Sequence record: SRR31147125_4898
DNA length: 33,363 bases
Direction: 5' to 3' (one strand)
The notes under the pieces were generated by a model. The model saw nothing but the letters and a program-made list of their open reading frames with translations, was not told the DNA's origin and searched no databases. How positions within the stretch are numbered: position 1 is the stretch's first letter; each line of letters opens with the position of its first letter. Of this stretch, positions 1 to 15,967 are shown piece after piece. A program made the translations under genes and the position numbers.

Positions 1-204
1 ATTCATAATATTAGATTAGGAATGATGGTTGTAAAAAACCAAGATAACTCCAATGAATACACAGCTATTCCAGTTTGGGATTTCTTTGGAAACTATGAAA
101 TAGAAGGCAAACCATCAATGATGCAAACTAAATATGTTTATGAATCCTATTTAACGATAAATGCAGTTGATGGATCCATAATAAATAGATATTTGGGTTA
201 CTAG
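1..204 (+). CDS. C-terminal part of DUF6034-like secreted protein (5' truncated by window edge)
   Basis: Frame open from base 1; contains IPVWDFF...YLTINAVDGSIINRYLGY, the signature shared with downstream paralogues. Confidence 0.75.
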   Translation: MHNIRLGMMVVKNQDNSNEYTAIPVWDFFGNYEIEGKPSMMQTKYVYESYLTINAVDGSIINRYLGY

Positions 205-356
205 TTTAGTATGAACATTAAAATTTTCTTGGAACAAAGTCTTTAAGTTTAATACTAAGACAAGCCATCATCAAGCAGATAGTGACGAATTATAAGATAC
301 TGTTTGTAAGATGAATGGTGGTTATTTAGAAGCCATTAGATAAATAGGAGGTTTTT

Positions 357-1790
357 ATGAACTGCGAAAAATATATAGCTTTGTTAACAGCACTAGTCAT
401 ACTGTGTACATTTAGTGCCTGTCAGCAAACACCAGAGAAAGAAGCTGTTATTCAAAGAGACAATACGGAAAAAGTAGTATTAGAATCATCTGAACAGGAA
501 GAATCCAATAAAGTTACAGAAGAGATAAGAAAGATACCTGAGACCATCCAGAGTAGATTTGAAGTTGTTGAAGATTATATGGATATTGTAATCAATGCAC
601 CAATCAACTTTCCATATATCGATAATATATCTGTTGTAAAAGTAAAGCCTATAACCTTTAGTATAAATCAGGCAGAAATAATTAAAGAATACTTTGCTAA
701 GGATGGAGAGTTACAAGAGCATATAGAATTAACACAATCTGAGTATGACGATATGATTATCGAAGCAAAAAGAGGTCAACTAATAGATGGTGTATACGTG
801 GTTAATGAAAGTAGTGAGGCTTGGGTCGAAGAATTAATTAAGCGTCGAGATGAAGCACCTGACGCTAGAAACCCGCAGCCGATATCTGAGTATTCCATTG
901 AAGATGGAATACATGCTAATATAACTATAAATGGCAAAAAACTTGGATCCGTTCATTTTTCAGAAAACATAATCTCATTTAGTGCTGGTTTAAAAACAGC
1001 AAGCAAATCTATGCCCATAATTGTACACCGCGCAGGAGAGAGGCCAGTTGCTGAATATCTTCCTGATGTCCAAATCGATATGTTTGAAGCTGAAGCCATA
1101 AATATAGGGAAAAAAATACTAGATGACTTAGATATACAAGGCATGAATATTAAGGAAATTGAAGAAGTAGTTTTTTTTGAGGATAATGTTGAAGATGCTA
1201 CAAGTGGCGGTTATAAAATGGTGTTTATGCGTGAATCCTCTGGTATTATGCCAGTCTATATGACAGGCTATGGTAGAAATACTCAAGAACCTTTAATGGA
1301 ATATACTCAACCAGCTGAAATGGAAAGTCTTATTATCACCATAAATGATAGTGGCGAAGTCACATTTTTCTCTTGGAGAAATCCCATAGAAATCGTTGAG
1401 GTTCTTTCTAATGATGTACCAATCATTTCTTTTGATGAGATATTAACAAGATTAGAGGATTTCTCTAAGTATCAATGGTCCTACTTGGATGATATGGTAA
1501 AAAGCGAAAGCTATAAGTCTGTAAAATACATTTACGATATTAACCTAAATCTTTCTTATCTACCCATTAAAAATAATCCAACCGAATTTATGTATGTACC
1601 GTGCTGGGTTTTTACTTATAAGCCAGATCAATTTGATACAATGGATTTAGAAAGAATGGATACAGAGGGTATTTATCCTGATTTAAGCGAAGTAAGTCTT
1701 GCGTATAGTGATGAATATATTATATTCAGTGCCATTGATGGTGCTAGTGTTTCTGCTTATCCTGCGAAAATTTTAGAACCTATAAAGTAA
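357..1790 (+). CDS. DUF6034-like lipoprotein (477 aa)
   Basis: AGGAGG RBS; signal peptide with lipobox FSAC (Cys22); FSWRNP, VPCWVF and IFSAIDG motifs. Confidence 0.75.
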   Translation: MNCEKYIALLTALVILCTFSACQQTPEKEAVIQRDNTEKVVLESSEQEESNKVTEEIRKIPETIQSRFEVVEDYMDIVINAPINFPYIDNISVVKVKPITFSINQAEIIKEYFAKDGELQEHIELTQSEYDDMIIEAKRGQLIDGVYVVNESSEAWVEELIKRRDEAPDARNPQPISEYSIEDGIHANITINGKKLGSVHFSENIISFSAGLKTASKSMPIIVHRAGERPVAEYLPDVQIDMFEAEAINIGKKILDDLDIQGMNIKEIEEVVFFEDNVEDATSGGYKMVFMRESSGIMPVYMTGYGRNTQEPLMEYTQPAEMESLIITINDSGEVTFFSWRNPIEIVEVLSNDVPIISFDEILTRLEDFSKYQWSYLDDMVKSESYKSVKYIYDINLNLSYLPIKNNPTEFMYVPCWVFTYKPDQFDTMDLERMDTEGIYPDLSEVSLAYSDEYIIFSAIDGASVSAYPAKILEPIK

Positions 1791-1832
1791 ATCTATGCCC
1801 ATAAAAGATCAACTATTGCATTAGAGGTGCGA

Positions 1833-1916
1833 ATGAAAGAATTAACAGAAAACAACTGCAAGATTATTGCTAGAAATTTAATAAAAGTATATAAAATAAA
1901 TAAGGCAAGACTATAG
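1833..1916 (+). CDS. Possible 27-aa basic peptide MKELTENNCKIIARNLIKVYKINKARL
   Basis: GAGGTG at 1824-1829 upstream of ATG 1833; TAG 1914-1916; no recognisable family. Confidence 0.25.
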   Translation: MKELTENNCKIIARNLIKVYKINKARL

Positions 1917-1917
1917 C

Positions 1918-2014
1918 CTCTCTCTAATGTAGATATAAATTCAGGGTTGTTAGCGATTATGTTTAGCAGATGATATTAGACCCTTGAGTTAATATATATA
2001 ATCTAAAGAGAAAG
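1918..2014. repeat. Degenerate ~30-bp inverted repeat
   Basis: Left arm CTCTCTCTAATGTAGATATAAATTCAGGGT versus reverse complement of right arm CTTTCTCTTTAGATTATATATATTAACTCAAGGGT. Confidence 0.35.
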
Positions 2015-2182
2015 TGATATGTATGAGATTTTACAAAAGTTTTAGCAAAATCAATAGTTGGAAGTCCATCGCAGAAATGTAATGCTGGCATAAAATGATT
2101 TAATAAGCGCTTATTCAATGGATAGGATATGAAAAGTACTAAATGTTAAAGGAATATAATTTTTTTGGAAGAAGGAGAGAAA

Positions 2183-3703
2183 ATGAAAAAGCAAAGTAGC
2201 TATATTACTGTATTATTATGCATGATTTTTTTTACTACTGCTTGTATGCCAAGTGAACAAAGGGAGCCAGTTGTTAAAAATGCAATTCAAATGACCGCTG
2301 AAGAAAAGCCATCTACAAAAGAAGAACAGACTAAGGAAGTTGAAGAGGTTTTATCTACTCCTATAAAGCAGATTGTGGATGCACCTGATTCCATTGATAA
2401 AAAGTTCAATGTGTTTGATGAGAAATTAAAAGTAACTATAAAAAGTGATATCGAAATACCTGATGTAAGCGTGACGCCTATTTTTAATGTAACGCCAGCA
2501 GATTTTACACAGGAAACGGTTGATGGACTTATCAATGTGCTATTTGAGGGGAAAAAAATTCTGGAGATAAATGAAACCCCTATAGACAAAAGCGATATAA
2601 AGCAGCAAATGGACACAATAAAGAGGCTCATGAGCAAGGAAGTAGAAGGTTATGAGGAAGAGTCAAAAGACGAAAACGAACAGTGGTTGGAAAGATTAGA
2701 ATTATTATACGAATCTGCGCCTGATGAAGAAGAAATAGAATTTGTTGAGTCTGATGGGAAATTAAAACTAAAAACTGATAAATGGATACCAAGAGAGGAG
2801 ACTGATATATGGGGGAGTTATTGCCTTTTTGTGCGTACTCATGCCGATTATAATCAATCTCAGTCATTTTCCGTAATGAACAACGTAAACCAAGTAACGG
2901 CTGATTTATCTGAAACTAATAAAACATATAATAATTCATACCTTACTTATTATGATAATACGCAGGGTAATTCCTATGATGAAAGTGGTAATGGATATTA
3001 TAAAGCTTATGATGAAATGGAACTTGATAACGATGAATTAGCCGCAACATTAGCTTTTAAACCTAGTGATGCTGTTTCATATGTAGAAGAGTTCTTTGAA
3101 AGTGCTGGCAGAGGAGATATTAAAGTACATTCTATCTTTATAAAAGATAATGAGCAAAAAGGTAATGTTGATGATATTGTAGCTGATGCAACTGAATACT
3201 ATTATGAGATATTTATGCAAAGAGTTGTAAATGATATTCCATACACGAGTGATTTATCGGCTATTAAAATTGATAAAAAAATTATTTGGGAAAATGAACG
3301 GATTGTTGTAAAAGTAAATCAGAGTGGGATATTTAATATAGAGTGGCATAGTCCAATTGAAATTGGAGGAATCATTGTACAAGAAATTCCTTTAGTAAAA
3401 TATGAAGAAATTGAATCCAATATAGAAAAATACATTGAACAAACCTATGAAGGATATGTAGAAGGGCTTATAAATGATAGTGATATTGAGCCTTATATAA
3501 ATATTGACCAAGTAGCATTCGAATACTTAAGGATTCCTGTAAAAGGTATTGATGGGAAAGAGGCTGTTGCTATACCTGTATGGAACTTTTACGGAACAGC
3601 TGTCTTTGATCAATATGGGGTAGATAATCCTCAAGAACCAGAAGTGATACTTAGTATTAATGCAATGCATGGGAGTTTGATTACCAAAGAATCATCCTAT
3701 TAA
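2183..3703 (+). CDS. DUF6034-like lipoprotein
   Basis: Start moved from TTG 2165 to ATG 2183 behind AAGGAG; lipobox FTTAC (Cys21); IEWHSP, IPVWNFYG, ILSINAMHGS. Confidence 0.75.
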   Translation: MKKQSSYITVLLCMIFFTTACMPSEQREPVVKNAIQMTAEEKPSTKEEQTKEVEEVLSTPIKQIVDAPDSIDKKFNVFDEKLKVTIKSDIEIPDVSVTPIFNVTPADFTQETVDGLINVLFEGKKILEINETPIDKSDIKQQMDTIKRLMSKEVEGYEEESKDENEQWLERLELLYESAPDEEEIEFVESDGKLKLKTDKWIPREETDIWGSYCLFVRTHADYNQSQSFSVMNNVNQVTADLSETNKTYNNSYLTYYDNTQGNSYDESGNGYYKAYDEMELDNDELAATLAFKPSDAVSYVEEFFESAGRGDIKVHSIFIKDNEQKGNVDDIVADATEYYYEIFMQRVVNDIPYTSDLSAIKIDKKIIWENERIVVKVNQSGIFNIEWHSPIEIGGIIVQEIPLVKYEEIESNIEKYIEQTYEGYVEGLINDSDIEPYINIDQVAFEYLRIPVKGIDGKEAVAIPVWNFYGTAVFDQYGVDNPQEPEVILSINAMHGSLITKESSY

Positions 3704-3730
3704 TATAAAATTATAAAATAATCTCTTCTT

Positions 3731-3756
3731 TAGCCAGCTTTGTTCTGGCTATTGTT
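3731..3756 (+). terminator. Putative intrinsic terminator
   Basis: TAGCCAG-N7-CTGGCTA stem followed by TTGTT, 27 nt after stop. Confidence 0.5.
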
Positions 3757-3763
3757 ATATCCA

Positions 3764-3865
3764 AATTGTAAACAAATGGATTTTATGTTGACATTAAGGT
3801 AGGGTTGTTATACCATAAATACGGTAGTTTTATACTACCAAACTATATAGTAGAAGGTATATACC
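3764..3865 (+). promoter_or_regulatory. SigA-type promoter of blaI-like gene 1 with repeated operator boxes
   Basis: TTGACA 3788-3793, 17 nt, TACCAT 3811-3816; RGTAG-N7-MTACC boxes at 3798-3814, 3823-3839, 3849-3865. Confidence 0.65.
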
Positions 3866-4330
3866 ATGAATGAATATAAGTTAACAAATACAGAAAGAAT
3901 CATAATGGAAGTTTTATGGAGACATGAAGAAGAGATTAAAAAGCAAACATGCGGAATGAAGGATTTGCCTAACGCGAAAACAAGTGCGCAACAAGAGGTG
4001 AAGGCCGAGCCTGAAGGGATGTCTAATGCTGAGATTCATAATATTATTGGCGAAAAAAACGAATGGTCAAGGCATATGGTAAAGACATATACCAAAGCTT
4101 TAGCTGATAAGGGCTTTTTGGGTGTTAATCAGATATCGGAGAGAAAGATTAAATTTTATCCTATCATAACTAAGGATGAATTTTTAGCGAATGAAGCTAA
4201 TGGTTTTTTACGTAAAAACTATAAAGGTTTATCGGGTATGATTGCTGGGCTAATCGATAATGAAAAGGTTAGCAAAGATGAAATTGGTGAGCTTGAAAAA
4301 CTGATTGCTGACTATAAGGAGAATGAATAA
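3866..4330 (+). CDS. BlaI/MecI/CopY family repressor (with ~30-aa insertion)
   Basis: LTNTERIIMEVLW, WSRHMVKTY, L..KGFL wHTH motifs; stop overlaps M56 start (TAATG). Confidence 0.9.
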   Translation: MNEYKLTNTERIIMEVLWRHEEEIKKQTCGMKDLPNAKTSAQQEVKAEPEGMSNAEIHNIIGEKNEWSRHMVKTYTKALADKGFLGVNQISERKIKFYPIITKDEFLANEANGFLRKNYKGLSGMIAGLIDNEKVSKDEIGELEKLIADYKENE

Positions 4331-6812
4331 TGGTATCCATATTTAAAGTCATGATAGAAGTAGCTTTACTGTCTTCAATTATGATTGTATCAATACTTAT
4401 GTTAAGGTTGATTTTTCAAGACAAGCTTTCTATAAAGATAACAATGCTCCTTTGGCTACTTGTAATGATAAGATTAATCTTGCCATTTACCATTCAGTCC
4501 CCAGTGCAGATTATAGGACTTTTTCCGCACAATACAAATACTGAGGTTGAGACATTAGAATCTGATATAGCAAAAGATGAAATAGAAACAACTGATACAG
4601 ACAATATTGCTATAAATCAAACACAAGAGGATTCTACAGCAACAGATGTACAGCAAAAACCAGTGCAAATGGAAACAGTTGAAACATCAATAGATGCAAA
4701 AGTGCAAGAAAAAAGCAACTTGTTTGGTGGACTAAGCCTTATAGAAATACTCTGTTACATATGGCTGGTTGGTGTTTTTGTCTCGTTGGTTATCAATATC
4801 GTATGGATTATAATTTTTAATAACAAAGTGAAAGAATCCGCTTTTTTAAGCGATAAGTTGATTGCCCAGAAGATATACAACGATTGCTATAAGCTTAACA
4901 TTGGTAAAAATGTATCTGTCTATGAATGCGACTATATCGATTCGCCAATTACGTGTGGCGTAATTAGACCAAAAATTCTGTTGCCTGCTGATTTGATTAC
5001 CAATGTTGGTAAACAAAAAGCGGAGCTTATAATCTTTCATGAGCTAATTCATATCAAAAACTTTGATATATTGAAAAGTTATGTTTGGATGTTTGCTAAA
5101 GTTATCTATTGGTTTAATCCACTGATATATTTAGGGTATCATAAATATCTTGAAGATGTAGAGCTGAATTGCGATAATGCAGTTAAGCAAAACATTCAAA
5201 ACAGGAGATTTTACATTACTCTCAAGGTCTTTTAGATGTTCTAAAGTTATCCCAAGGTGAAATTAAACTTCCTACAGCGATGCCTTTCTGTAAAACTAAA
5301 ATCAGAAAGAGAGTGGAAACTATGCTTAAACCAGAAAAGAAATGGAAAGTGGCAACGGTAGTTTCGTATGCTGTTATTGCTATATTAATAGTTGGTTGTT
5401 TTACAACTGCATGTATGAAAAAGGAGTCTGAAATAGAAACAGATGATATTATTGTAGAACCTAAAATAAAGCAAGCTGAAACGGTAGAAAGCAAAACAGA
5501 AGTTGATAGTGAAAAAATTCAACAGAATAGTACAACGAACAGTGAATTTGTTAATGTATTTGATTATTGGACTAATGATGAAGAAACAGTTACAGTGGAA
5601 ATAGATGCGGAAGTAGAGATGCCAGTACCAAAAACAATGCCTGTTGCACAAATTGAACAGTTTAAAATATCCCCAGAGCTTGCAGAACATATTGCAAAAA
5701 CTTTTTTTGGTGATGTTCCTATGATTGATGGAACTATATATACAAAATCGATGTACGAGCAGGCACTTGCGAATATTGAGGAATCAGCAACTGATATGAA
5801 TTCTGATATGGCAACTGCAAGTGGAGCGAAGAATCTTGAAGAGCTTAGAAAAGTTGCTGATATTCAGATCGAAAAAGTAAAGAAAGCCATGAAAGATGCA
5901 CCCGAAACGGCAAGTGAAGTTGATTTTGAAGATATTGATAGTTCGATGGGGCTGATATCAAATGTTGATATAGGGAAAGAGTATACAGGTACAATCTATG
6001 CTGAAAATAACAGCACTAGTCCGCAAAGAGGAATAAGGTGCTTTGCTTTTGGCAGTGGATTTAAAATTTCTAGAAAACTTGATTATAGTGCGATTACGCC
6101 GGCCGATATGAATAACCTTAACAAAGATGCAGAAAAAGGAAAAGAATTAGCCGAGAAGCTAGTTTCGGATATGGGAATTGACGGTGTGAAACTTGGGAGG
6201 ATATATTTATCAGATGATTATACAGGATTAATGTCTGAAGATAACACAGACCAAGAGCTACAAGGAATTAGTAGCGATAGGAGATTTTATGTTTATGTCT
6301 TTGAAAGAGAAGTTAACGGCAAATTGATAGACTTTTCACTTGTTCAAGGAGATTATAAAAATCCATATGAGAGAATAGAGGTTTGGGTAGAGGACAGTGA
6401 TAAGATAAGACAATTTTCATGGATATCACCTAAAGAAGTTGTAGATGTAATTTCCGAAAGTGCTGAAATAAAAATCGATTATCTTCAAGCTGTAGAGCTG
6501 ATGAAAGAAGCGTCGATTAACAAGTTTGTAGATAAATATGGGTTTTATGACCATTTCAATGTTTATGTAGATAATATCCAGTTTGAATACTTAGGTGTGA
6601 ATATAGATGACCAGTGGGTTTCTACACCTGTTTGGGTATTTTACGGCGAAGCTTTTGGAAGGATTACAGAAAAAGTATTAGAAGATCCTGGTAACAGTGA
6701 TAAAGAAGTAGGTGATTATTCGAGGCAAACAGTAGGTTTTACAAGGGCAAACATAATGATGTGTATAAACGCACTTGATGGCAGTGTAATTGAATTAGAG
6801 CCAAGAAGCTGA
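4330..6812 (+). pseudogene. BlaR1-like M56 metalloprotease fused to DUF6034-like extracellular domain; frameshifted near 5190-5201 as sequenced
   Basis: HELIH zinc motif, RPKILLP, WFNP; the -1 frame continues QEILHYSQGLLDVLKL...RKRVETM, matching YSQSLIDAIKL...RKRVENM of the intact paralogue; one added base gives ~827 aa. May be a sequencing error rather than a true pseudogene. Confidence 0.8.
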
Positions 6813-6846
6813 GGTGTCATTGATGATGGTTTTTTAGTTAAACTAA

Positions 6847-6927
6847 GGTATAATGACCAGATTTTTTATGGTGTTTAATGTGAAAGATGGTAGTATAATA
6901 AAATCGTATATTGAGAACAAAGGATAG
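6847..6927 (+). pseudogene. Relic C-terminus of a further DUF6034-like paralogue
   Basis: Translates GIMTRFFMVFNVKDGSIIKSYIENKG*, resembling the family's terminal INAxDGSII motif. Confidence 0.4.
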
Positions 6928-6987
6928 AATTATAGGCGGTTAGCAGCAGTAGCTTTAAAGAAGTTATTGTACGGAGGTAAAGATATA

Positions 6988-7922
6988 ATGGAAAGAAAAA
7001 TTAAAACGATTATAATTATTTTTATGCTAGTATTTATTACAGGGTGCAAAGCAAATGAGTCTGAAATAGAAGCAGTAAATATTATTGAAAGCACCCCGAC
7101 GCCAACAGCAGTATCAGAAAGCGAAGAAAAAATTATTGAAGATAATGTAGTGAAACATATTTCTTCGCCTGATGAAGAAACAGAAGAATCAGAAAAATCA
7201 GATGAAGAAATCATTATTGGCACAACTAAGGGCGAAACGAGGCTTGTTAGCCAAAAAGTGATGTATATTCCTGGTGCTGAATTTGACACAATAAGATATT
7301 TAGACGAAGGTGAAGAGTTACTACTTATTGAAGCTGGATGTGAGTGGCACAAGGTTAAAGCTGGTGATGATGAGGGTTATGTTTTGGCTAGGGACGTAAA
7401 TGGGATTGAGCTTGCTGATTCTCCTTATTATATCTATATAGAAAAAGGCTCGCATACGATAAATGTATATAAAAAAGATGGTAACGATGAATATACTAAT
7501 CTTGTTAAAACATTTGTAACAGCGACTGGAGAAACAGCAGGAAAGACACCAACAGGAGTATTTTTTATATATCGTAAAAGAGAGTGGAAGCAGTTTGATA
7601 GCGGTGGAGAAAAAGAGAATACTCATATTCGCCATTTGTTTCGCAGTTTACAAGGGGGATATATATACATGGATCAGTTTATGAATCTGAGGATTTTGAT
7701 AAGATGTTTGGAAACACCTATAGAGAAATTGGAACGGATTCTACTGCTGGGTGTTTAAGAACAAACGCTGGCTCTGCTTATTGGATATATTCGAACTGTC
7801 CGCTTGGAACAATGGTTGAAATAGTAAATGGGAGTCCAAGAGGAATTGAAACGCCTAAACTTGAACCTCCAATAAAAAAAGGAGGAAGGTTTTACGATCC
7901 GACGACTCCGCTTTTAGATTAG
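6988..7922 (+). pseudogene. Lipoprotein with SH3b domain and YkuD-type L,D-transpeptidase; frameshifted near 7610-7615 as sequenced
   Basis: GGAGGT RBS, ATG 6988, lipobox ITGC; WHKV...EGYV (SH3b); TPTGVF; the -1 frame gives IYIHGS...STAGCLR catalytic motif continuous with ORF 7704-7922; ~311 aa if one A is restored. Confidence 0.8.
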
Positions 7923-7934
7923 AAAATACAAGCG

Positions 7935-8013
7935 AATTGTAAACAAATATAGAAACAGTTGACAATTAGGGTGGTGTGGTATACTCTTTACACGGGTATG
8001 AAACACCACCCTA
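7935..8013 (+). promoter_or_regulatory. SigA-type promoter of blaI-like gene 2 with paired operator boxes
   Basis: TTGACA 7959-7964, 17 nt, TACTCT 7982-7987; GGGTR-N8-YACYC boxes at 7969-7986 and 7994-8011; perfect 11-bp inverted repeat 7967-7977/8003-8013. Confidence 0.65.
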
Positions 8014-8046
8014 TTAGTTTGCAAACGCTAAGGAAAGGATCCTTTT

Positions 8047-8421
8047 ATGAACGAACAAAGATTAACAGGTGCAGAAAGAACGATTATGGAGGTTTTGTGG
8101 GAACATGGAGAGCGATCTAACACGCAAATAACCGTGATTTTAAATGATGAAACAGGCTGGTCTAGGCATACTGTAAAGTCTTATACAAACAGCTTGGTGT
8201 CGAAAGGTTTTTTAAGCGCAAATCAGCTAAGTCAGCGAAAGATATACTATATGCCAACAATGAGTAAAGATGAATATTTGGCTATGGTGACGGGTAAGCA
8301 CCTAAGAGAGAACTATCAGGGGCTTAATTTTATGGTAGCAGGGCTTATAAAAAATGAGCAGGTTTCGGATGACGAAATTGAAGCTTTAGAAAAAATGCTT
8401 TCGGAATATAAGGAGAAATAG
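8047..8421 (+). CDS. BlaI/MecI/CopY family repressor
   Basis: LTGAERTIMEVLW, WSRHTVKSY, LVSKGFL; 124 aa; directly upstream of M56 gene. Confidence 0.92.
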   Translation: MNEQRLTGAERTIMEVLWEHGERSNTQITVILNDETGWSRHTVKSYTNSLVSKGFLSANQLSQRKIYYMPTMSKDEYLAMVTGKHLRENYQGLNFMVAGLIKNEQVSDDEIEALEKMLSEYKEK

Positions 8422-8422
8422 C

Positions 8423-10942
8423 ATGGATGAAATCGTTAAACAACTATTGCAGTTGACTCTGTTTTCATCAGCTGTAATGATTGCAGTGCTTTTACTTCGA
8501 AGGCTTTTTGAAAATAAGCTTTATCCAAAGGTTTTATCAATGCTTTGGGTTATCGTGCTTGTTAGATTATTTATTCCAATCACTATTACATCACCAATCC
8601 ATTTTAATGAGCTGATACAAAGAGAAGCGATTATAGAAAAAGAACAGCTGACGGCAGTTTTTAACCAGCAACAGAGTATCCCTTTAGCAAATACCGATAC
8701 TATTGCAATAGAAAATAGCGATATCACGGATATCCAAACGGATAAACCAAATAATATCGCCATAAATCAAACACAAGATAATTCTATAGCAAAACAAAGC
8801 GGTTTTCAAGTTTTTGTAGCAAAGATAAAGGATAAGCTCACTGGTTTTACTGCTTTAGCATTTATCTGGATAGTTGGCATGATAGTATCGGCTGTTATTA
8901 ATAGCATAAAGATGATTAGCTTTAAAAGAAGGCTTGATGGTGCAAGGATGATTTATGATAAACCAGCTTATAGAACTATGATAAGTGCAAAGAAGTCGAT
9001 TAACCTAAAGCAAAGGGTGTTTATTTATGAATCTAACTTTATCGAAACACCTGTAACGATGGGTGTGTTACGACCAAAGATAATTCTGCCTGCTGGTTTT
9101 GCTGAATCGTTTGAAATGCCAAAGCTTGGACTTATTTTGCTTCATGAATTATGCCATATTAAACGAAAAGACATAGTGAAAAACTACTTGTGGCTAATTG
9201 CTAGTATTGTTTATTGGTTCAACCCAATTATTTATATTGCATACAAAGCTTATACAGATGATATTGAGTATATTACTGATGAGATGGTGCTGAAAAACAC
9301 AAGCAAAGATCAGAGAATTGCATATTCTCAATCGTTAATCGATGCAATTAAGCTAGCTAAGCTAAACCAAACCCAAAGCAAAATCGCTCTTTCTTTCTGT
9401 ACATCAAAGACCAAACTTAGAAAGAGAGTTGAAAATATGATAAGACCAAATGAAAAACGAAAAGCAGCAACGATTATTTCTATGATAATATGTGTTGTTT
9501 TGATGGTTACATGTTTTACTACGGCTTGTATGAAAAATGAAGAAGGTATGCAAGAGGATGCCGAATCAAAAGAAAAAATAAAAGTAAAAGCAATTGATGA
9601 AGTTATAACTTCGGAGAAATATGTATTAAATATTAAAGCTGATATTGAGGATTATAGCGATAGTGATTTTAATATTTACAATGCAACTGTACTGCAATTT
9701 GACATGCACAGTTGGTTTGAATACTTTTTTAGTGGTAAGAATAAAGAAAACTTAAGGCACTATTTTGATTCTTTTGATACAGCAAGTTTAGAAAATATGG
9801 GCATTGAAGATGATTATCGTGATACGACATTTGGTTATTTTTCTGGAAATGGAAAGGATATGTATTATGCTGCATATGACCCTACGGAGGCAATGTTTCT
9901 TTATGAAGAACCGATGCTTAACTCAGGATTAGGCGAGTACTATTTATCACCTATTGACTACGCAATTGATTCTGAAGCTGTAGACAAAGCGAATGAATTA
10001 ATAAGCTTTATATCAAATGATTCTTTTATGATGACCGAGAGCTACAAAATAGAGAATACAGATAAATCAAGCGAAGTATATGAGTTGGTCTATCAACTCC
10101 AAATTGACGATTTTGATGTGTTGTATGATGTCCCTGTTGTTGACATTGCGGATAATATAAATTTGTATACGACTGTAGAAATAGATAGGATTAAAGTTAG
10201 AATTGTTGATGGGAAAATTGCCTACGCAAGTGGATTTATTCGCTCGATAGAAAAAGAAAGCTTTCATAAAGCCATTTCGGCTGATGATGTTATTGATATT
10301 ATCAAAGATAACATGGATGATATTGATGCCTTTTCTCCTAGTGGACAAGTTGATGGTTATCAAATTGAGTTTGATATCAACTCTATTATACTTAAATATT
10401 ATCCAGTTACATCAAATCTAACTAATAAAGAAACAAGTAATGTCAATGTACAATACATACCCGTTTATGTTGTTGCATCTGGTTCAAGAGTAAACACATA
10501 TCTTGAATATGTAATGATAATAAATGCGATTAATGGGGAAGTTTTGAATAAACATGAGATGGGTCTTAATAACCCTGTACCAGACTATCCTCCAATTGTT
10601 AAGGGACAAAGCAATGGGTATAATATGATTGCCGAACTGACAGGCGATTTTATTGATATGGATATAAAGTATATTAATAAAGAAACGCAAGAAGAATATA
10701 CATTTAAAACTAATAATGAGTTTTGTCAAATGCTTGATGGAGAAAACTGGGAGGCAGTTGGCAAACAGCTTTTGTCCGATCAGTCAACGGTTTTTTCTGA
10801 ATGGATTGAAATTATGGGCTGTAAAATTGTAAGCGCTGATGAAGAGCTGTTATTTTACTATAAGGATAAGATGTACACGATAAAAGCTGATAGCAATATT
10901 TTTGATATGATGAAAAATATGATTAAGGGTTCAGGTGATTAG
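8423..10942 (+). CDS. BlaR1-like M56 metalloprotease fused to divergent DUF6034-like extracellular domain
   Basis: Transmembrane segments, RPKIILP, HELCH, WFNP, KLRKRV, internal CFTTAC, IPVYVV...IINAINGEV. Confidence 0.88.
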   Translation: MDEIVKQLLQLTLFSSAVMIAVLLLRRLFENKLYPKVLSMLWVIVLVRLFIPITITSPIHFNELIQREAIIEKEQLTAVFNQQQSIPLANTDTIAIENSDITDIQTDKPNNIAINQTQDNSIAKQSGFQVFVAKIKDKLTGFTALAFIWIVGMIVSAVINSIKMISFKRRLDGARMIYDKPAYRTMISAKKSINLKQRVFIYESNFIETPVTMGVLRPKIILPAGFAESFEMPKLGLILLHELCHIKRKDIVKNYLWLIASIVYWFNPIIYIAYKAYTDDIEYITDEMVLKNTSKDQRIAYSQSLIDAIKLAKLNQTQSKIALSFCTSKTKLRKRVENMIRPNEKRKAATIISMIICVVLMVTCFTTACMKNEEGMQEDAESKEKIKVKAIDEVITSEKYVLNIKADIEDYSDSDFNIYNATVLQFDMHSWFEYFFSGKNKENLRHYFDSFDTASLENMGIEDDYRDTTFGYFSGNGKDMYYAAYDPTEAMFLYEEPMLNSGLGEYYLSPIDYAIDSEAVDKANELISFISNDSFMMTESYKIENTDKSSEVYELVYQLQIDDFDVLYDVPVVDIADNINLYTTVEIDRIKVRIVDGKIAYASGFIRSIEKESFHKAISADDVIDIIKDNMDDIDAFSPSGQVDGYQIEFDINSIILKYYPVTSNLTNKETSNVNVQYIPVYVVASGSRVNTYLEYVMIINAINGEVLNKHEMGLNNPVPDYPPIVKGQSNGYNMIAELTGDFIDMDIKYINKETQEEYTFKTNNEFCQMLDGENWEAVGKQLLSDQSTVFSEWIEIMGCKIVSADEELLFYYKDKMYTIKADSNIFDMMKNMIKGSGD

Positions 10943-11099
10943 GAAAAGAGAAACTCGATAGAGAAATTGTTGAAATGAACCCAATAGAATACTATGTAAG
11001 TTTTGAATATGGCAATGAGATATTCACCTCGGGTATATTGATAGATACAGGAGAACTTGATAGTAGACAACGTAGTGCAAAGCAATAGTATGAATTAAC

Positions 11100-11139
11100 A
11101 AGGAGGTTATCTTTTATTACTATAAGATAACTTCTTTTT
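11100..11139 (+). terminator. Intrinsic terminator
   Basis: AAGGAGGTTATCTT / AAGATAACTTCTTT stem with T tail. Confidence 0.6.
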
Positions 11140-11245
11140 AATTTATATACTTATAAATAAATGATGAACTATTATGCAATCATTTGTATGCATATATAGA
11201 TTATGGTAGCATAATGTGTAGAATAATTGTTGGGAGACAGTAATT

Positions 11246-11974
11246 ATGCATATAGCAATTTGTGATGATGATTTTATTGTATGTTCACAGGTGAAAGGTT
11301 TCTTAAAAGCACTATCTGTGAATCGAAATATTAAAATGTCGATGACAGTATTTAATACTGGAGAGAAATTTTATAAGTCTATTGAGAGTGGTCTAAAATA
11401 CGACATAGTTTTTTTAGATATTGAGCTTGGAGACTTAATGGGTACTACTATTGCTTGTAATGTTAGGAATCATTTGAAAGATCCATTCACTAAAATCATT
11501 TTTATTTCAAGTTCAAATGATTATGGACCAGAAGTTGTAGATTCTTCGCCAATTAAGTATCTTATTAAGCCTTTAAACTACGATATGATAGAAGATGCAT
11601 ATTTAGTTGCTAAAAAGTCAATTGATGAAGATAGAAAAGAGTTTATATACAAAGAAGGTAAATCGAAAAAAAGCGTTCCTTTAAAGAGTATTCTTTATTT
11701 TGAAGCATTTGATAAAAAAGTCAGAATAGTAACTACAAAGGGTGATGTTTTTTTCTACGGAAAAATATCTGAAATTGTAAAGCAGGATATTACTGGTTTT
11801 ATTTTCACCCACAGATCATATGTTATTAATTATTTTTACCTTAAAGATTATGCGGCTAATGAAGTTGTAATGAAAAATAACGATAAGTTACCAATATCGA
11901 TAGCTAGAAGAGACCAAGTGGAAGACATAATGATGAAATATTACGAAAGGTATGCAACCTCTAGTCAAATCTAG
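11246..11974 (+). CDS. LytTR family (AgrA-like) response regulator
   Basis: IAICDDD, FLDIEL, FISS, YLIKP receiver motifs; THRSYVIN LytTR motif. Confidence 0.92.
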   Translation: MHIAICDDDFIVCSQVKGFLKALSVNRNIKMSMTVFNTGEKFYKSIESGLKYDIVFLDIELGDLMGTTIACNVRNHLKDPFTKIIFISSSNDYGPEVVDSSPIKYLIKPLNYDMIEDAYLVAKKSIDEDRKEFIYKEGKSKKSVPLKSILYFEAFDKKVRIVTTKGDVFFYGKISEIVKQDITGFIFTHRSYVINYFYLKDYAANEVVMKNNDKLPISIARRDQVEDIMMKYYERYATSSQI

Positions 11975-11994
11975 TTTGCATAAACTTTAACTAT

Positions 11995-13290
11995 ATGAAT
12001 GATATTGTATTTACTATTTTATTTTTGCTAATAAGCCTATTTGGAACATATACACTATCTAAAGTGTTTCAGATTTTCTTTAAAAGACCGATTAGAAGAT
12101 TGCGTTATGTATATAGTGCATATGCCTTGTATTTTATTATCAATAGTACTTGTTATTTGCTATTTCATAATGTTTATATCACAATGACTACGAATCTTGT
12201 ACTATATTTTATAATTTCATTAAATTATAGAGCACCATTTTTGAAAAAGGTTCTATTTATTGTTTTAATATATATAGGCTTGATTATATTAGAGGTATTA
12301 ACAATCGTCATATTTAATCTTTTTGGTATAAATCCGCTGTTGGAAAACACCAATATTTTATCTTTATGGATAACGCTTTTTGTAAATGTCACAGCACTTA
12401 TTGTATCATCAATAATCTTAAGAAATAATCTATTCAATAATAATTCTCGTGTATCATTTAGAAGTTCATTTCCGATTTTTGTTTTATCAATGTTGATATT
12501 GATATTAGCGGTTGTTTTACCTCCGCTTAGTTATAAGAGTGATAAGTACATAACCGTTTCAATCTTAACGCTTTGTTCTATTTCGGTTTTTATGTATATT
12601 TTTATTGATAATATTGCGAGAATTTCTGATGAAAAATCAAAGAAGGAAATTTTTTCGAGTCAAGTTGACTATTATAAAATGCAAATTGAGCTTATGAATC
12701 GCCAGCAAAACAATATAAGGACTATTAGACATAATATAAATGGTCAGATAGAAACTATATATACTTTAATCGATGATAATGAAATAGAATCTGCGAAAGA
12801 GTTCATAGGTGGGCTCATTGACCTTGTTAAAATCAGCGAGAAGAAAGTTTCTACAAATATCCCAGAACTAGACAGTCTGTTGAATTATAAGATGAATTAT
12901 GCTGATAAAATGGGGATTAATTTGTCGGTAACTACTAGAATAGAAGAAGATATAAGAATCAAACCTCATGATTATGTGAGTGTATTGGATAACTTGATAA
13001 ATAATGCAGTAGATGCTGTTAAAGATTTAGAGCATGATAAACGAGCAGTTCAACTTGTTTTTGCTGCATTTAAAGGTAGGGTTTTTATCAAAATCGAGAA
13101 TGCTTATGAACATGAAATACAAGTAACTAATGATGTGTTTGAAACATCTAAAAATGATAGTGATAAGCACGGCTATGGAATAGAATACATTAAGAGCATA
13201 GTGGATAAATATAATGGAAAAATCGATATAGATTATTCTGATAAGTTTACAGTTAAGATGTCTATGCAAAATTCTAACGACATTAATTAA
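11995..13290 (+). CDS. AgrC/VirS-like membrane GHKL histidine kinase
   Basis: About 6-7 N-terminal TM helices; IRHN H-box, LDNLINNAVDA N-box, TSK...HGYGI G-box. Confidence 0.88.
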   Translation: MNDIVFTILFLLISLFGTYTLSKVFQIFFKRPIRRLRYVYSAYALYFIINSTCYLLFHNVYITMTTNLVLYFIISLNYRAPFLKKVLFIVLIYIGLIILEVLTIVIFNLFGINPLLENTNILSLWITLFVNVTALIVSSIILRNNLFNNNSRVSFRSSFPIFVLSMLILILAVVLPPLSYKSDKYITVSILTLCSISVFMYIFIDNIARISDEKSKKEIFSSQVDYYKMQIELMNRQQNNIRTIRHNINGQIETIYTLIDDNEIESAKEFIGGLIDLVKISEKKVSTNIPELDSLLNYKMNYADKMGINLSVTTRIEEDIRIKPHDYVSVLDNLINNAVDAVKDLEHDKRAVQLVFAAFKGRVFIKIENAYEHEIQVTNDVFETSKNDSDKHGYGIEYIKSIVDKYNGKIDIDYSDKFTVKMSMQNSNDIN

Positions 13291-13305
13291 GAAATATTAT
13301 ACATA

Positions 13306-13425
13306 TCACGGCTTCAACATGCATCCTCCTGCAACCCCGATTTTCACTTTTCACGGCGAAGAAGTGGGGTTTTCGCGAAATTATACTGATTTATACAATT
13401 AAATAGGGTACAATCCGATTATAAT
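13306..13425 (+). promoter_or_regulatory. Candidate LytTR-dependent promoter
   Basis: TTTTCACG 13348 and TTTTCGCG 13370 spaced 22 bp, extra TCACGGC at 13306; TACAAT 13409 and TATAAT 13420 with no consensus -35. Confidence 0.4.
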
Positions 13426-13444
13426 TTGATTTTTGGAGGGTGCT

Positions 13445-13572
13445 ATGAAAAAGTTTTATTACAAAATACTTGTAAGTATATTTAGTTTCGTAATAATGCT
13501 TGCTTCTTTAAAAATTAGCATTCCTAGTTGGTTTGGTTCGAACCGAAAAAACACCTGAAAATCAAAGGATGA
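13445..13572 (+). CDS. agrD: AgrD-like cyclic lactone autoinducer precursor (37 aa as read to 13558; 42 aa if one T is restored)
   Basis: GGAGG RBS 13435-13439; amphipathic leader MKKFYYKILVSIFSFVIMLASLKISIP then SWF; the -1 frame continues FEPKKHLKIKG*; position directly after LytTR/GHKL pair. Confidence 0.65.
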
Positions 13573-13604
13573 TATGGTTGATTGCCCTTCAACCATATCA
13601 TTTT
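13569..13604 (+). terminator. Intrinsic terminator/attenuating hairpin after agrD-like gene
   Basis: Perfect 13-bp stem ATGATATGGTTGA/TCAACCATATCAT, 7-nt loop, T run. Confidence 0.7.
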
Positions 13605-13644
13605 ATATAAGTATTTAGGACTTATAAAAAAAGGAGTATAAAAA

Positions 13645-14469
13645 ATGTTTAAACAAAAGAGAAACATCAACATAGCGAGTGTTATATGTATAGTAGTAAT
13701 TTTAATTGTAACTATTACAGAAACAATAACAGCCTGCAGACCACCGGTAGATGAAACATATGTTTCAACTGAATCTGAAGGACCAATGGTTTTGCAAGTA
13801 GAAACAGATATTTTTAATCCAAAAGACAATAAACTAAAAGAAATTAATCAAACTGATGATATTGTCATTGAAAAGGACTCCATAACTATTAAACGCGACT
13901 ATGAAATCATTATGCCGACAGACGATGAAATAAAGCTAATTGAAGTTTTTCCCAAGCACTTTACTTTGGATCAGATGTATAAAATGGTTGAACTAGTTAA
14001 CCCAAACAAACCGCTATATGATTTTTTTGATCACTCTGAATTTGATGTGACCTGGTCAGTGTTTGAGGATGATAATGATAAGCTTATTTCACTTTTATCT
14101 CCAACTGACGATGGCAGAGAAATTTTATTCGACATCAATCAAAGTGAAGATGGAATGGATCAACTGAGTTTTCAATATACAAATGATATGAGTATTCCTG
14201 CTTACAGTGAATATGAAGGACAAGATATTGAGGGCATGGAAAAATCATATGTTGAATGTTTGGATATTGCCAAAGAATTTATAGCAGAGTTGGATGGCGA
14301 AGATAGCTTTCGATATATCCTTACACCAATGTGGGAATTTGATTGCGAGGTTAAATACAGTGATTTTTTTACGGATGATTATTTTAATACTCATGGTATC
14401 TATTATTATACTCATGGTAACTATAGGTTCTTAACGATCAACGCTTTGGATGGTTCGATTGTTAACTAA
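13645..14469 (+). CDS. Short, internally deleted DUF6034-like lipoprotein (274 aa)
   Basis: AAGGAG RBS; lipobox ITAC (Cys31); TPMWEF...LTINALDGSIVN. Confidence 0.65.
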   Translation: MFKQKRNINIASVICIVVILIVTITETITACRPPVDETYVSTESEGPMVLQVETDIFNPKDNKLKEINQTDDIVIEKDSITIKRDYEIIMPTDDEIKLIEVFPKHFTLDQMYKMVELVNPNKPLYDFFDHSEFDVTWSVFEDDNDKLISLLSPTDDGREILFDINQSEDGMDQLSFQYTNDMSIPAYSEYEGQDIEGMEKSYVECLDIAKEFIAELDGEDSFRYILTPMWEFDCEVKYSDFFTDDYFNTHGIYYYTHGNYRFLTINALDGSIVN

Positions 14470-14515
14470 ATATAATTAGTAATTGAAAACCTATATGGAA
14501 AGAGAGTTTTAAAAC

Positions 14516-15967
14516 ATGTTTATAACGGATGAAAAATCAAAATTGATTTGTGCAACAAGTGCATTATTAATAACTATTGCTATGGTTGGCTGTTTTGCGA
14601 CAGCATGTTTTTCGTTAGACAAGGAAACAGTACATACCATATTAGAAACCAAGCAGGTTGGAAATGATGAATTAAGCATAGAAGATAAACAAATTTATGA
14701 AAATAATAAAAAAGATTTAAGAAAACAAATATTAATGATTGACAGTCATCAGGACGAATTGATTGATACTGTTAATGAAGGAGTTAAGATTAAAATAGAT
14801 GCAGATATATTGATACCGGAGCAAGAGCATATACCAATTGCTAGAATACGGCCTGAAAATTTTTCAAATGATCAATTTATAAAATTTTCGAACACTCTAT
14901 CAAATGGAAATCAGCTCTACTTTTCAGATGGTAATCAATACTCAAAAGAAGAGATAGAGAATGTTATAAACTCACTTAAGACATATCAATCTGCTCCAAA
15001 TTTACCTTATTATATAGAAAATGAAATTAATAGACGAATAGAATGGTTTGAGAAAAAATATAAAGGCGCAGTTAACAAGTCTGACGAGAAAAAGTTTGAA
15101 GGCGATTTGCAAAGTGTAGTGAGAGATTATAGATATACTCTTAAAGCGTATATGGGTCATGATATTGCTGCGAAATTTCAAATGGATTATAAAAAAAATA
15201 AAACGGAAACCATGTTGCTTTTTAGAAATCATAATTATTCTGAAGCTTACAATTATTTTGATGATTACGTAGGAGTTGATGCTGAAAGAATGAGTACTTC
15301 TTATGACGAAGCTAAAGAAACTGCATTGGATGCAGTAAGACTCATAGATGGACAAGAAAGTAATTTTATAATTTATGATTCTTCAATCGCATACGAAATT
15401 GAGTCCGAACGAAACCTATCAAAGGATGAATCTCCACAAGGTTATAAGTTTAAACTTGCACGAAATTACAACGGAGTAGATTGTAAATTAGTACCTAATT
15501 TAGGTGTGTATTATAATGTAAACTATGAAGCTCAAGTTTTACCTGAAAGGATTGAAATAATTGTTGATGATAGCGGAATACAATCTTTTGTATGGCTGGG
15601 GTATACACAGTATGTGGAAACGATTGCGGATGATGTTTTGTTGAAGGATTTTACAGATATATGGGCGTTATTTGAAGATGATTGTAGAAAAAAATTCAAT
15701 TGGAAACCAACATTGCCATCTTTTCCTGACGATGTTAATGTACTTGTGCATGTTAAAAGCGTTGAAATGAATCTCATGCCAGTAGCCGAAAATGAAACTT
15801 TAGAAACATATAAAGTGATTCCAGTATGGGATTTTATTGCTGATATTGAATATTCCGATAAAGTATATGACGATGATGGTTTTGCATCTGTTATCCCAAC
15901 TGGTGAAAGCATTCTGACGATTAGTGCGATTGATGGAACTATAATGAATAGAGAGCAAGGGTATTAG
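14516..15967 (+). CDS. DUF6034-like lipoprotein (483 aa)
   Basis: CFATAC lipobox (Cys31); GIQSFVW, IPVWDF, LTISAIDGTIMNREQGY. Confidence 0.78.
   Translation: MFITDEKSKLICATSALLITIAMVGCFATACFSLDKETVHTILETKQVGNDELSIEDKQIYENNKKDLRKQILMIDSHQDELIDTVNEGVKIKIDADILIPEQEHIPIARIRPENFSNDQFIKFSNTLSNGNQLYFSDGNQYSKEEIENVINSLKTYQSAPNLPYYIENEINRRIEWFEKKYKGAVNKSDEKKFEGDLQSVVRDYRYTLKAYMGHDIAAKFQMDYKKNKTETMLLFRNHNYSEAYNYFDDYVGVDAERMSTSYDEAKETALDAVRLIDGQESNFIIYDSSIAYEIESERNLSKDESPQGYKFKLARNYNGVDCKLVPNLGVYYNVNYEAQVLPERIEIIVDDSGIQSFVWLGYTQYVETIADDVLLKDFTDIWALFEDDCRKKFNWKPTLPSFPDDVNVLVHVKSVEMNLMPVAENETLETYKVIPVWDFIADIEYSDKVYDDDGFASVIPTGESILTISAIDGTIMNREQGY

Follow-up and report, generated by a model that had tools for sequence, protein, structure and literature searches.

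A possible internal lipoprotein signal peptide between protease and sensor in BlaR1-type M56 proteins with DUF6034 bodies

BlaR1-type proteases are the textbook example of a repressor-cutting receptor, and thousands of uncharacterised relatives are found in gut and environmental Firmicutes. Two genes of this type, here called gene 1 and gene 2, lie in SRR31147125_4898, a stretch of DNA of 33,363 nucleotides that we refer to as the window. Both encode an M56 protease module whose last transmembrane helix ends in CFTTAC and leads into a sensor part that is DUF6034 in gene 1 and DUF6034-like in gene 2. We put at about even the chance that in BlaR1-type M56 fusions the last transmembrane helix and CFTTAC together serve as a lipoprotein (type II) signal peptide inside the chain, acted on by Lgt and LspA. 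The BlaR1-type switch and a signal-peptidase site behind its last helix are already known; it is the predicted type II site at this place that is new, and a literature search that had most subscription journals outside its reach found no paper dealing with DUF6034, with an internal lipobox, or with M56 proteins that have a lipobox. Coordinates are positions in the window, and those joined by two dots refer to its plus strand.

The closest described system is BlaR1/MecR1 of Staphylococcus aureus (structures 8EXP to 8EXT), which acts with the repressor BlaI. A cryo-EM report on BlaR1 (PMC9834060) places autocleavage between Ser283 and Phe284, as found by Edman sequencing, and Arg294 on helix alpha-9, where a conserved salt bridge ties it to Asp246 in the active site. 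It also describes a second cut in the linker that follows the last helix: SpsB, a type I signal peptidase, cleaves between Gly331 and Gln332, which sheds the sensor domain and is blocked by the exchange G331K; the cleavage site of BlaI is given as Asn101/Phe102 (PMC9834060). On that account, the last helix of BlaR1 already acts as an internal, cleavable signal peptide.

Gene 2 aligns with S. aureus BlaR1 (8EXP) at an E value of 6e-14 in HMMER. We re-registered this alignment by eye on the shared Ser-Phe and Arg, a shift of one residue from the HMMER register (in which R333-K334 falls on Arg293-Arg294), so that S324-F325 (9392..9397) corresponds to the autocleavage site Ser283-Phe284, R333-K334-R335 to Lys292-Arg293-Arg294, and Met339 to Ile298. 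Phe325 is invariant in the alignment of fusions, and H241, E242, H245, E282, D286, and R335 are invariant in 10 fusions and align with the corresponding BlaR1 residues. The zinc site HExxH, the downstream Glu as third ligand, and the Asp-Arg pair (Asp246-Arg294 of BlaR1) are thus shared, as is a BlaI-family gene directly upstream, and the basic Arg-Lys-Arg motif appears from these alignments to be kept for catalysis. The distance from Arg294 to Gly331 in BlaR1 is 37 residues, and that from the Arg to the junction Cys in the fusions is 34. In both systems, a signal-peptidase site lies within a few residues of the last helix; here it is predicted, while in BlaR1 it is cut by SpsB (PMC9834060). 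Two features set the locus apart. The sensor is of the DUF6034 (PepSY/YycH-like) type and not a penicillin-binding domain, and the site is a lipobox (type II) and not a type I site, so that the sensor would stay on the membrane where that of BlaR1 is shed. No penicillin-binding sensor domain was found by Pfam behind the last helix, where gene 1 has DUF6034 and gene 2 no match, and nothing here ties these genes to beta-lactams.

An older report is said to have placed BlaR1 autocleavage at Arg293/Arg294, and a sequence-only reading of the window had likewise proposed that autocleavage at a basic KRR-type site exposes the type II signal peptide. The basic-site cleavage in that proposal is superseded, the cut lying at Ser283/Phe284 and Arg294 being an active-site residue in the BlaR1 report (PMC9834060), while its idea of a lipidated sensor gains support from a Cys kept in 65 of 65 fusions and from the SpsB precedent described there. 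This leaves a version in which M56 autocleavage must first free the N-terminus of the segment before Lgt and LspA can act. The equivalent of the BlaR1 site is present, as Ser-Phe in gene 2 (the one of the two that shares the BlaR1 dipeptide) and Pro-Phe in gene 1; among the 65 fusions, counted from the junction Cys, position -45 is A in 25, S in 24, and G in 8, and position -44 is L in 19, F in 10, and M in 10; and BlaR1 is described as autocleaving spontaneously (PMC9834060). We nevertheless regard a required first autocleavage as quite improbable: the BlaR1 cut is at Ser283/Phe284 and not at basic residues, a helix inserted N-in/C-out shows its lipobox to Lgt alike with or without a free N-terminus, and SpsB cuts purified BlaR1 in that report, where prior autocleavage is not named as a requirement.

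The junction has the same build in both window genes. AGAAAGAGAG encodes Arg-Lys-Arg-(Val) at 5304..5313 in gene 1, where the last Arg is the equivalent of BlaR1 Arg294, and Arg333-Lys334-Arg335-(Val336) at 9419..9428 in gene 2, and each copy ends 8 nt upstream of an in-frame ATG (5322..5324 and 9437..9439). The second of these encodes Met339 of gene 2, the first residue past the Pfam M56 match, which ends at residue 338. Downstream of both Mets come a basic stretch, a hydrophobic helix, and CFTTAC (5397..5414 with Cys26 and Cys31 counted from Met 5322; 9512..9529 with Cys364 and Cys369 of gene 2), and the second Cys is residue 31 in each, 30 residues behind the Met. Two stand-alone genes farther downstream, starting at 13645 (..ETITAC) and 14516 (..CFATAC), have Cys31 as well. 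GAAAGAGAGTT stands at 14498-14508, and gene 14516 is without any other purine tract ahead of its ATG. The 10-mer GAAAGAGAGT occurs three times in the 33-kb window, at exactly these three sites, against 0.07 expected occurrences, and 0 of 100 shuffles reached three. These strings and coordinates had been given in the sequence-only reading; all are exact, and the 10-mer goes beyond chance. The wider claim made there, that a complete lipoprotein gene is nested in each M56 sensor, stands for the motif parts, which are in both genes, but not as a whole: gene 1 is two open reading frames (ORFs) as the window reads, and the Met is not a feature of the family.

Two lipoprotein patterns, the Gram-positive pattern G+LPP and the core of PROSITE PS51257, were applied to these segments. 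Those starting at 5322, 9437, and 14516 pass G+LPP at Cys31, and the first Cys (Cys26; IVGC in gene 1 and MVGC in gene 14516) is also in a lipobox context. The signal peptide of gene 13645 fails both patterns because it has Glu at -5, and the stand-alone gene starting at 2183 fails G+LPP. In the fused genes, the signal segment is not N-terminal; it starts at about residue 339 of 839 in gene 2, behind three helices and the protease domain.

To follow conservation of the junction, we used a profile confined to the DUF6034 body; its 466 positions begin behind the Cys, and the junction could therefore not bias the catch. Word-based protein searches had returned only 7 and 5 matches, the family being too divergent for them, and the profile search was used instead; it gave 4722 proteins at E<=0.001 among 1.84 billion representatives. 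We examined the best 150 of these 4722 matches. All 57 fused proteins among them (at least 700 amino acids and outside the profile) have the lipobox Cys at the junction, and together with two fusions in the profile and six from the word searches the Cys is kept in 65 of 65 fusions, which answers a check on homologues named in the sequence-only reading. The pattern by which these 65 were located demanded A, G, or S at -1, which is found in 65/65. Arg stands at -34 in 64 of the 65, with no indel between Arg and Cys; position -5 is C in 49, -4 is F in 58, -3 is T in 58, -2 is T in 60, and -1 is A in 60, and behind the Cys +1 is Q in 52, +2 is P in 57, +3 is T in 46, and +4 is P in 50. Internal segments pass a relaxed G+LPP at the junction Cys in 62/65 cases. 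Conservation of the Met, the other half of the same check, fails: position -30 is M in 35, I in 19, V in 7, and L in 4. What is constant in the number 31 appears to be a fixed length from a hydrophobic position to the Cys.

The free DUF6034 homologues (PF19499, uncharacterised) are, by their sequences, ordinary lipoproteins. At least 79 of the 88 under 540 amino acids have a lipobox in their first 60 residues, and with a stricter pattern 77 of 91 records under 700 amino acids matched, with the Cys mostly at 18 to 24. They share with the fusions the body, the signal peptide before the Cys, and the mature N-terminus C-Q-P-T-P-E. The signal peptides themselves differ. That of the free proteins is N-terminal and short, with Leu at -3 in 44 of the 77 with a recognised lipobox, and only 2 of these 77 have their Cys at position 31. 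In the fused genes, the signal is the fourth helix of the protease, always with 30 residues from the hydrophobic position (Met here) to the Cys and with F-T-T-A before it.

In the mechanism that we propose for the fusions, Lgt would lipidate the junction Cys after membrane insertion, and LspA would then probably cut ahead of the lipidated residue. One gene would thereby yield a four-helix M56 protease module and a lipid-anchored PepSY/YycH-like sensor, partners held together non-covalently; the free paralogues nearby would be the same kind of lipoprotein, separately encoded, and the processing would be a type II counterpart of the SpsB cut in BlaR1. We arrive at this internal type II signal because the Cys stands at a fixed distance from the active-site Arg in 65/65 fusions, because the mature N-terminus C-Q-P-T-P-E is the same as in the free DUF6034 lipoproteins, because half of a clostridial M56 sample (43/87, described below) has a lipobox at this spot, and because S. 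aureus BlaR1 is cut at the equivalent spot by a signal peptidase (PMC9834060).

Several points weigh against this mechanism. Type II signal peptides are by their usual definition N-terminal, and we know of no demonstrated case of Lgt and LspA acting behind three other helices and a cytoplasmic domain, nor did the literature search bring one to light. A constitutive LspA cut would end the covalent coupling of sensor and protease that is thought to be needed for BlaR1 signalling. The lipobox of the fusions is unusual: only 6/65 have the classic [LVI][ASTVI][GAS]C, and Thr at -3 is seen in 63 of 70 fused rows but in only 5 of 77 free ones. Such a motif may owe its conservation to something else, for instance packing of the helix or pairing of cysteines (C at -5 in 49/65), or the Cys may be lipidated without cutting, or the motif may slow LspA. 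On the supporting side, genes for Lgt and LspA are present in 3/3 related metagenome-assembled genomes (MAGs) with such fusions, a count that covers those genomes and not the organism of the window itself. The 65 fusions are the top of the list of 4722 matches, and the rows beyond the best 150 lie outside the count. Finally, also against the mechanism, the SpsB cut of BlaR1 is read in the report on it as turnover and not as maturation (PMC9834060).

The same place was compared in M56 proteins at large. Control loci were chosen by two patterns lying inside the protease domain only and derived from 10 closer fusions; in 26 diverse fusions no stretch was conserved enough for a locus search. The control comprised 79 loci with 88 ORFs matching the M56 model, 87 of them reaching its end, and its closest members came from Christensenellaceae MAGs. 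CFTTAC was found in 19 of the 87, another lipobox in 24, and none in 44, which often end the helix with an LTNP-type sequence. The other lipoboxes were mostly classical (LIGC before S, LVAC before Q, LTAC before S, MAGC before SS, and others). Elsewhere in the control proteins, the lipobox pattern occurs at 0.021 per 31 residues, from which about 1.4 would be expected among the 68 ORFs without CFTTAC. A pattern-free count agreed: 49 of 87 have a Cys within -6 to +8 of the helix end, 43 of those 49 Cys being preceded by A, G, or S, in proteins with an overall Cys content of 1.2%. CFTTAC also occurs with bodies outside the DUF6034 profile (L006, L007, L009, L011, and L015), and among ten control proteins scanned for domains the outer part consisted of RCC1 repeats, DUF4309, or an M23 peptidase, or matched no known domain. 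By these counts, clostridial M56 proteins commonly have a lipobox after their last helix, and the trait is not peculiar to this locus. Examples of M56 proteins with a classical lipobox and differing outer domains are L045:5051-7159, L047:3971-5632, and L068:3467-6928 (RCC1 repeats, DUF4309, and M23 peptidase); the M23 case would place a cell-wall hydrolase domain on a BlaR1-type switch.

These counts bear on the opposite explanation, that there is no processing at all: the motif would be a structural feature of the last helix in this M56 clade or the relic of a captured lipoprotein, and the only product would be the full-length (or autocleaved) membrane protein. The very uniform CFTTAC of the fused genes is indeed unlike the lipobox of the free homologues, goes with the protease module more than with the body, and recurs with the bodies outside the DUF6034 profile just listed, and the 44 of 87 M56 proteins without a Cys there manage with a helix end that is often of the LTNP type. 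A relic would decay, however, and the Cys is kept in 65/65 fusions though their bodies are only about 24% identical (median). The small residue at -1 is likewise found in all 65, where the pattern demanded it, and in 43/49 of the pattern-free cases. Classical lipoboxes (LIGC, LVAC, LTAC, and MAGC) with Ser/Gly/Gln-rich linkers behind them occur in the 24 M56 proteins whose sensors are unrelated, and the segment is kept at the N-terminus as the only export signal of intact genes (14516 and P0010). We therefore consider an absence of processing doubtful.

PepSY- and YycH/YycI-type domains are surface modules that regulate membrane sensors or proteases. The DUF6034 body resembles them in predicted structure. 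The C-terminal part of gene 2 has no Pfam match at E 0.01, and hhalign to the DUF6034 profile covers its C-terminal half only (probability 86.7, E 4.3e-6). An AlphaFold2 (AF2) model of the stand-alone gene 2183..3700, built from 81 sequences, reached a mean local confidence (pLDDT) of 85.1 and a predicted template modelling score (pTM) of 0.84. The best Foldseek match of this model in the Protein Data Bank (PDB) was 5COZ, the uncharacterised EUBREC_2869 of Eubacterium rectale (E 7e-12), followed by the WalK-YycH model 9A5D (1.5e-5), the C-terminal domain of YpeB (5BOI; 1e-4), YycI (2O3O; 2-3e-3), and propeptides of M36 and M4 proteases (6e-3 to 8e-2). The model thus assigns the DUF6034 body to a PepSY/YycH-like fold. 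What it shares with YycH/YycI, the WalK regulators of Bacillus subtilis, and with YpeB and the M4/M36 propeptides is a modelled likeness of fold and a predicted place at the membrane surface beside a membrane sensor; unlike YycH/YycI, its partner is a protease and not a kinase, and its predicted anchor is a lipid and not a helix.

One gene can give two products by an in-frame internal start, as in the two forms of IF2. The fused genes have the required layout, an in-frame ATG after a Shine-Dalgarno (SD)-like tract inside a longer ORF; the difference is that here the start codon is not family-wide (35/65) and the short product is putative. We computed SD pairing with a general 15-nt Firmicute 16S rRNA 3' tail, which is possibly not that of this organism. 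Pairing energies before 5322, 9437, and 14516 are -9.2, -9.0, and -9.0 kcal/mol and fall among the values of the window's annotated starts. Taken over 21 junction sites (19 from relatives and the 2 window sites), related sequences whose counts are not independent, the median is -10.1 kcal/mol with 16/21 at or below -9; for 414 further in-frame ATGs in these 21 ORFs, the median is -3.2 kcal/mol and 3.4% reach -9 or lower. Synonymous resampling with local usage gave means of about -7 kcal/mol, already far from the control value of -3.2, and the observed codons were stronger than half of the resamples at 19/21 sites (median percentile 0.17, against 0.58 for controls). With the core anti-SD alone, the codon effect was weak (median percentile 0.42). 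All 10 Arg-Lys-Arg sequences use AGA-AAG, where AAG makes up 31% of Lys codons in the window and neighbouring synonymous sites vary. The SD-likeness therefore comes largely from the conserved basic residues, with codon choice adding modestly, and there is a modest hint of selection on the tract at the nucleotide level.

These results were weighed for internal initiation, in which the in-frame Met is used with the Arg-Lys-Arg codons as SD, so that the fused gene also gives a free prolipoprotein that is exported and lipidated. The explanation is compatible with an internal type II signal in the full-length protein. It draws on the pairing of the junction tract relative to controls, the added strength from codon choice, the invariant AGA-AAG in 10/10 sequences, the equivalent tract as the only candidate ribosome-binding site (RBS) of the free gene 14516, and the presence in the near clade of ATG at 18/21 sites and TTG at one, with a strong SD-like tract at 16/21. 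Yet the Met is found in only 35/65 fusions across the family, the hydrophobic position and a nearby Met also occur in M56 proteins without a lipobox, and most of the SD-likeness is explained by conserved residues (resample mean about -7); moreover, the codon effect nearly disappears with the core anti-SD (0.42), the 21 sites are related, and the 16S tail is a general Firmicute one. A promoter scan for an internal promoter found 89 sites, against 84.1 +/- 8.9 in shuffles, with none above chance. Internal initiation is in our view unlikely. The sequence-only reading had suggested it as a source of free sensor; the SD-like tract that it saw is real, but with the Met in 35/65 and the tract largely due to conserved residues, it does not describe a family feature.

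The free gene 14516 (14516..15967; Pfam E 3e-40, 139 bits) is by descent a fission product of a fused gene, with the former Arg-Lys-Arg-Val codons now its only RBS candidate. Residues 329-369 of gene 2 align by tblastn with 14486-14608, in the frame of gene 14516 (E 3e-4). The 30 nt ahead of its ATG (14486..14515) read KTYMEREF*N against KTKLRKRVEN, a stop now being included, and in the DNA 25 of 34 columns are identical with one 1-nt gap on each side, as counted by eye. It is because this relic of the KTKLRKRVEN codons precedes the ATG that we derive gene 14516 from a fused gene. Its body falls in a starred clade of 12 with six fusions in the tree described below. Fission at the Met, as the sequence-only reading had it, is upheld for gene 14516 by the in-frame relic and by a body nested among fused genes. 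For gene 13645, the case is mixed: Cys31, the co-linear n-region, and nearest bodies that are fusions (P0002/3/5) make origin by fission plausible on sequence grounds, but the gene has a canonical RBS. No significant M56 remnant was found by tblastn upstream of 2165 or 13645 (best E 0.4, at 2186-2245). The body of gene 2165/2183 is 62% identical to that of fusion P0020, its sister with support 100, and it keeps FFTTAC.

The sequence of P0010 begins with exactly this Met (MLKPEKKSK..), and its sister is fusion P0014; records like it may be gene calls on frameshifted fusions, just as would happen with gene 1. The fused gene is broken inside the DUF6034 body in two related MAGs, by an in-frame stop (L005:3992-6445) and by a frame change (L004:4001-6550). 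A natural split into two lipobox genes was considered for both and rejected, the bodies being broken and the downstream pieces without a signal peptide; either faulty assembly or decay may explain these breaks.

A FastTree was built from 152 bodies; 147 rows carry a label, the five rows truncated at the N-terminus do not, and three partial records are treated as fused. On this tree, fused and free forms intermingle. At least 37 changes between the forms are needed among the 147 labelled rows, the fewest on one tree whose topology is uncertain, and many fused/free sister pairs are starred. The type of lipobox tracks the context, fused or free, and not the body. Pairwise identities, which do not depend on the tree, show the same disjunction within the fusions. 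Across the 65, identity of the protease part and identity of the body correlate only at a Spearman coefficient of 0.39, and the nearest neighbour is the same in both parts for 7/65. The pair P0087/P0150 shares 78% identity over the protease module and 26% over the body, and P0027/P0031 shares 22% and 61%, respectively. In 20-residue bins, identity switches at the Cys or at most 20 residues after it: P0098/P0115 are 100% identical over the 40 residues before the Cys and 20-50% after it, and P0087/P0150 and P0027/P0031 also switch sharply. By these comparisons, the protease module and the sensor body appear to have discordant histories with breakpoints at the Cys, which suggests that sensor bodies were recombined at the conserved ..AC QPTPE.. 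junction. Frequent interchange of fused and free forms together with discordant histories is easily understood if the two parts work as separate modules. On the reading proposed here, the stretch that begins with the Met would already function as a signal peptide and the Arg-Lys-Arg codons are RBS-like, so that a fused gene can break there and yield a viable lipoprotein gene, of which 14516 is a case.

Gene 2 (8423..10942) is intact and encodes 839 amino acids, comprising the protease (PF05569, E 4.6e-48, 164.3 bits, residues 7-338), the last transmembrane helix, the lipobox, a divergent DUF6034-like body, and a C-terminal extension of about 130 residues. Gene 1, as the window reads, is two ORFs: 4330..5235 with the protease part (PF05569, E 9.3e-47, 160.1 bits, model positions 3-253 of 296) and a premature TAG at 5233 seen in its translation, and 5280..6812 in another frame with the RKRV codons, the Met, and the lipobox. 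By tblastn of gene 2 residues 294-369 on 5196-5414, the continuation (5196..6812) holds the end of the protease domain, the last transmembrane helix, the lipobox, and the DUF6034 body (PF19499, E 1.4e-24, 87.3 bits), and the frame changes between 5193 and 5196. The frame is lost at a run of four A (5189..5192). In a contig assembled from public run X1 (789 nt, depth 5.8, spanning 4670-5457), position 5188 is followed by an additional A, making five in the run, and with it the two readings (..AVKQ and KHSKQEILHYSQGLLD..) would join in one frame that agrees with the intact 818-aa fusion P0008 (..RQKHSKEDMLQY..), to which the continuation is 40% identical. The break is a homopolymer error or a variant; the evidence is one contig of one DNA run, which is possibly the source of the window itself and so is not independent of its reading. 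A gene for a YkuD (L,D-transpeptidase) lipoprotein (signal ..VFITGC), at 6967-7922, is split over two overlapping frames (6967-7758, model positions 1-62; 7704-7922, positions 114-146). Its split is probably another indel, a hint that the assembly contains homopolymer errors.

Within 16 kb (1-15967) there are seven genes or gene parts related to DUF6034. Apart from the bodies of genes 1 and 2 and from gene 14516, whose signal (CFATAC, Cys31) was discussed above, they are as follows (Pfam curated cut-offs are 31 bits for PF05569 and 27 bits for PF19499). The gene at 1..201 is truncated by the window edge and retains a DUF6034 3' end (PF19499, E 6.5e-16, 58.7 bits, model positions 405-481; tblastn with the 14516 protein, E 2.5e-8). 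The gene at 357..1790 is a canonical stand-alone lipoprotein with a short signal peptide, TFSAC with Cys22 followed by QQTPEKE, an AGGAGG RBS, and a match to both lipoprotein patterns (PF19499, E 1.2e-24, 87.5 bits). The gene at 2183..3703, whose ORF opens with TTG at 2165 and which has the better SD before 2183, is a stand-alone lipoprotein with the fusion-type lipobox FFTTAC and Cys21 counted from the ATG at 2183 (E 7.5e-60, 203.6 bits). The short gene at 13645..14469 (Cys31, ETITAC) has a canonical AAAGGAG RBS, a Pfam match at the C-terminal end only (E 2e-07, 30.7 bits), and an hhalign probability of 95.8 for its N-terminal part. Free DUF6034 genes are thus of two kinds here, with a canonical short signal peptide (357..1790) or one of 31 residues that is fusion-derived in 14516 and plausibly so in 13645.

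Both M56 genes are directly preceded by a BlaI-family gene (PF03965), repressor 1 at 3866..4330 (E 3.2e-18, residues 52-148 only) and repressor 2 at 8047..8421 (E 4.5e-24). Repressor 1 is 30 residues longer and has ..GLSGMIAG.. where the translation of repressor 2 has ..GLNFMVAG..; the Asn-Phe pair of repressor 2 resembles the BlaI cleavage site, and the Pfam match of repressor 1 starts only at residue 52. Judging from these sequences, repressor 1 may be cleavable differently from repressor 2. Between gene 2 and the free genes 13645 and 14516 lie genes for a LytTR response regulator and for a GHKL sensor kinase whose N-terminus has several helices (11246-13290). A 13-bp perfect hairpin followed by a T-run on the plus strand (13569-13601), between the histidine-kinase gene and gene 13645, is likely a terminator, which would make 13645 and 14516 a unit by themselves.

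Whatever the fate of the protein, the locus shows gene fission in a clean form, with the once-coding Arg-Lys-Arg-Val codons turned into the putative RBS of a new gene. If the internal signal is real, it would be the first natural case known to us of the lipoprotein pathway acting on an internal helix of a polytopic protein, and it would link BlaR1-type switches to LspA and Lgt. If about half of clostridial M56 proteins carry a working signal, their mature form would be a two-piece complex of protease and lipid-anchored sensor, and models of signalling must change. We also put forward, tentatively and as something on the less probable side, that in many clostridial BlaR1-type switches the sensor is an exchangeable lipoprotein cassette, made as one chain with the protease and separated from it by the lipoprotein pathway at the conserved Cys, with AC-QPTPE doubling as the site where recombination exchanges bodies between free copies and those linked to a protease. 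Were this so, each genome would hold a shuffling repertoire of PepSY/YycH-like surface sensors, and LspA, the target of globomycin-type antibiotics, would be a maturation factor for a whole class of transcriptional switches.

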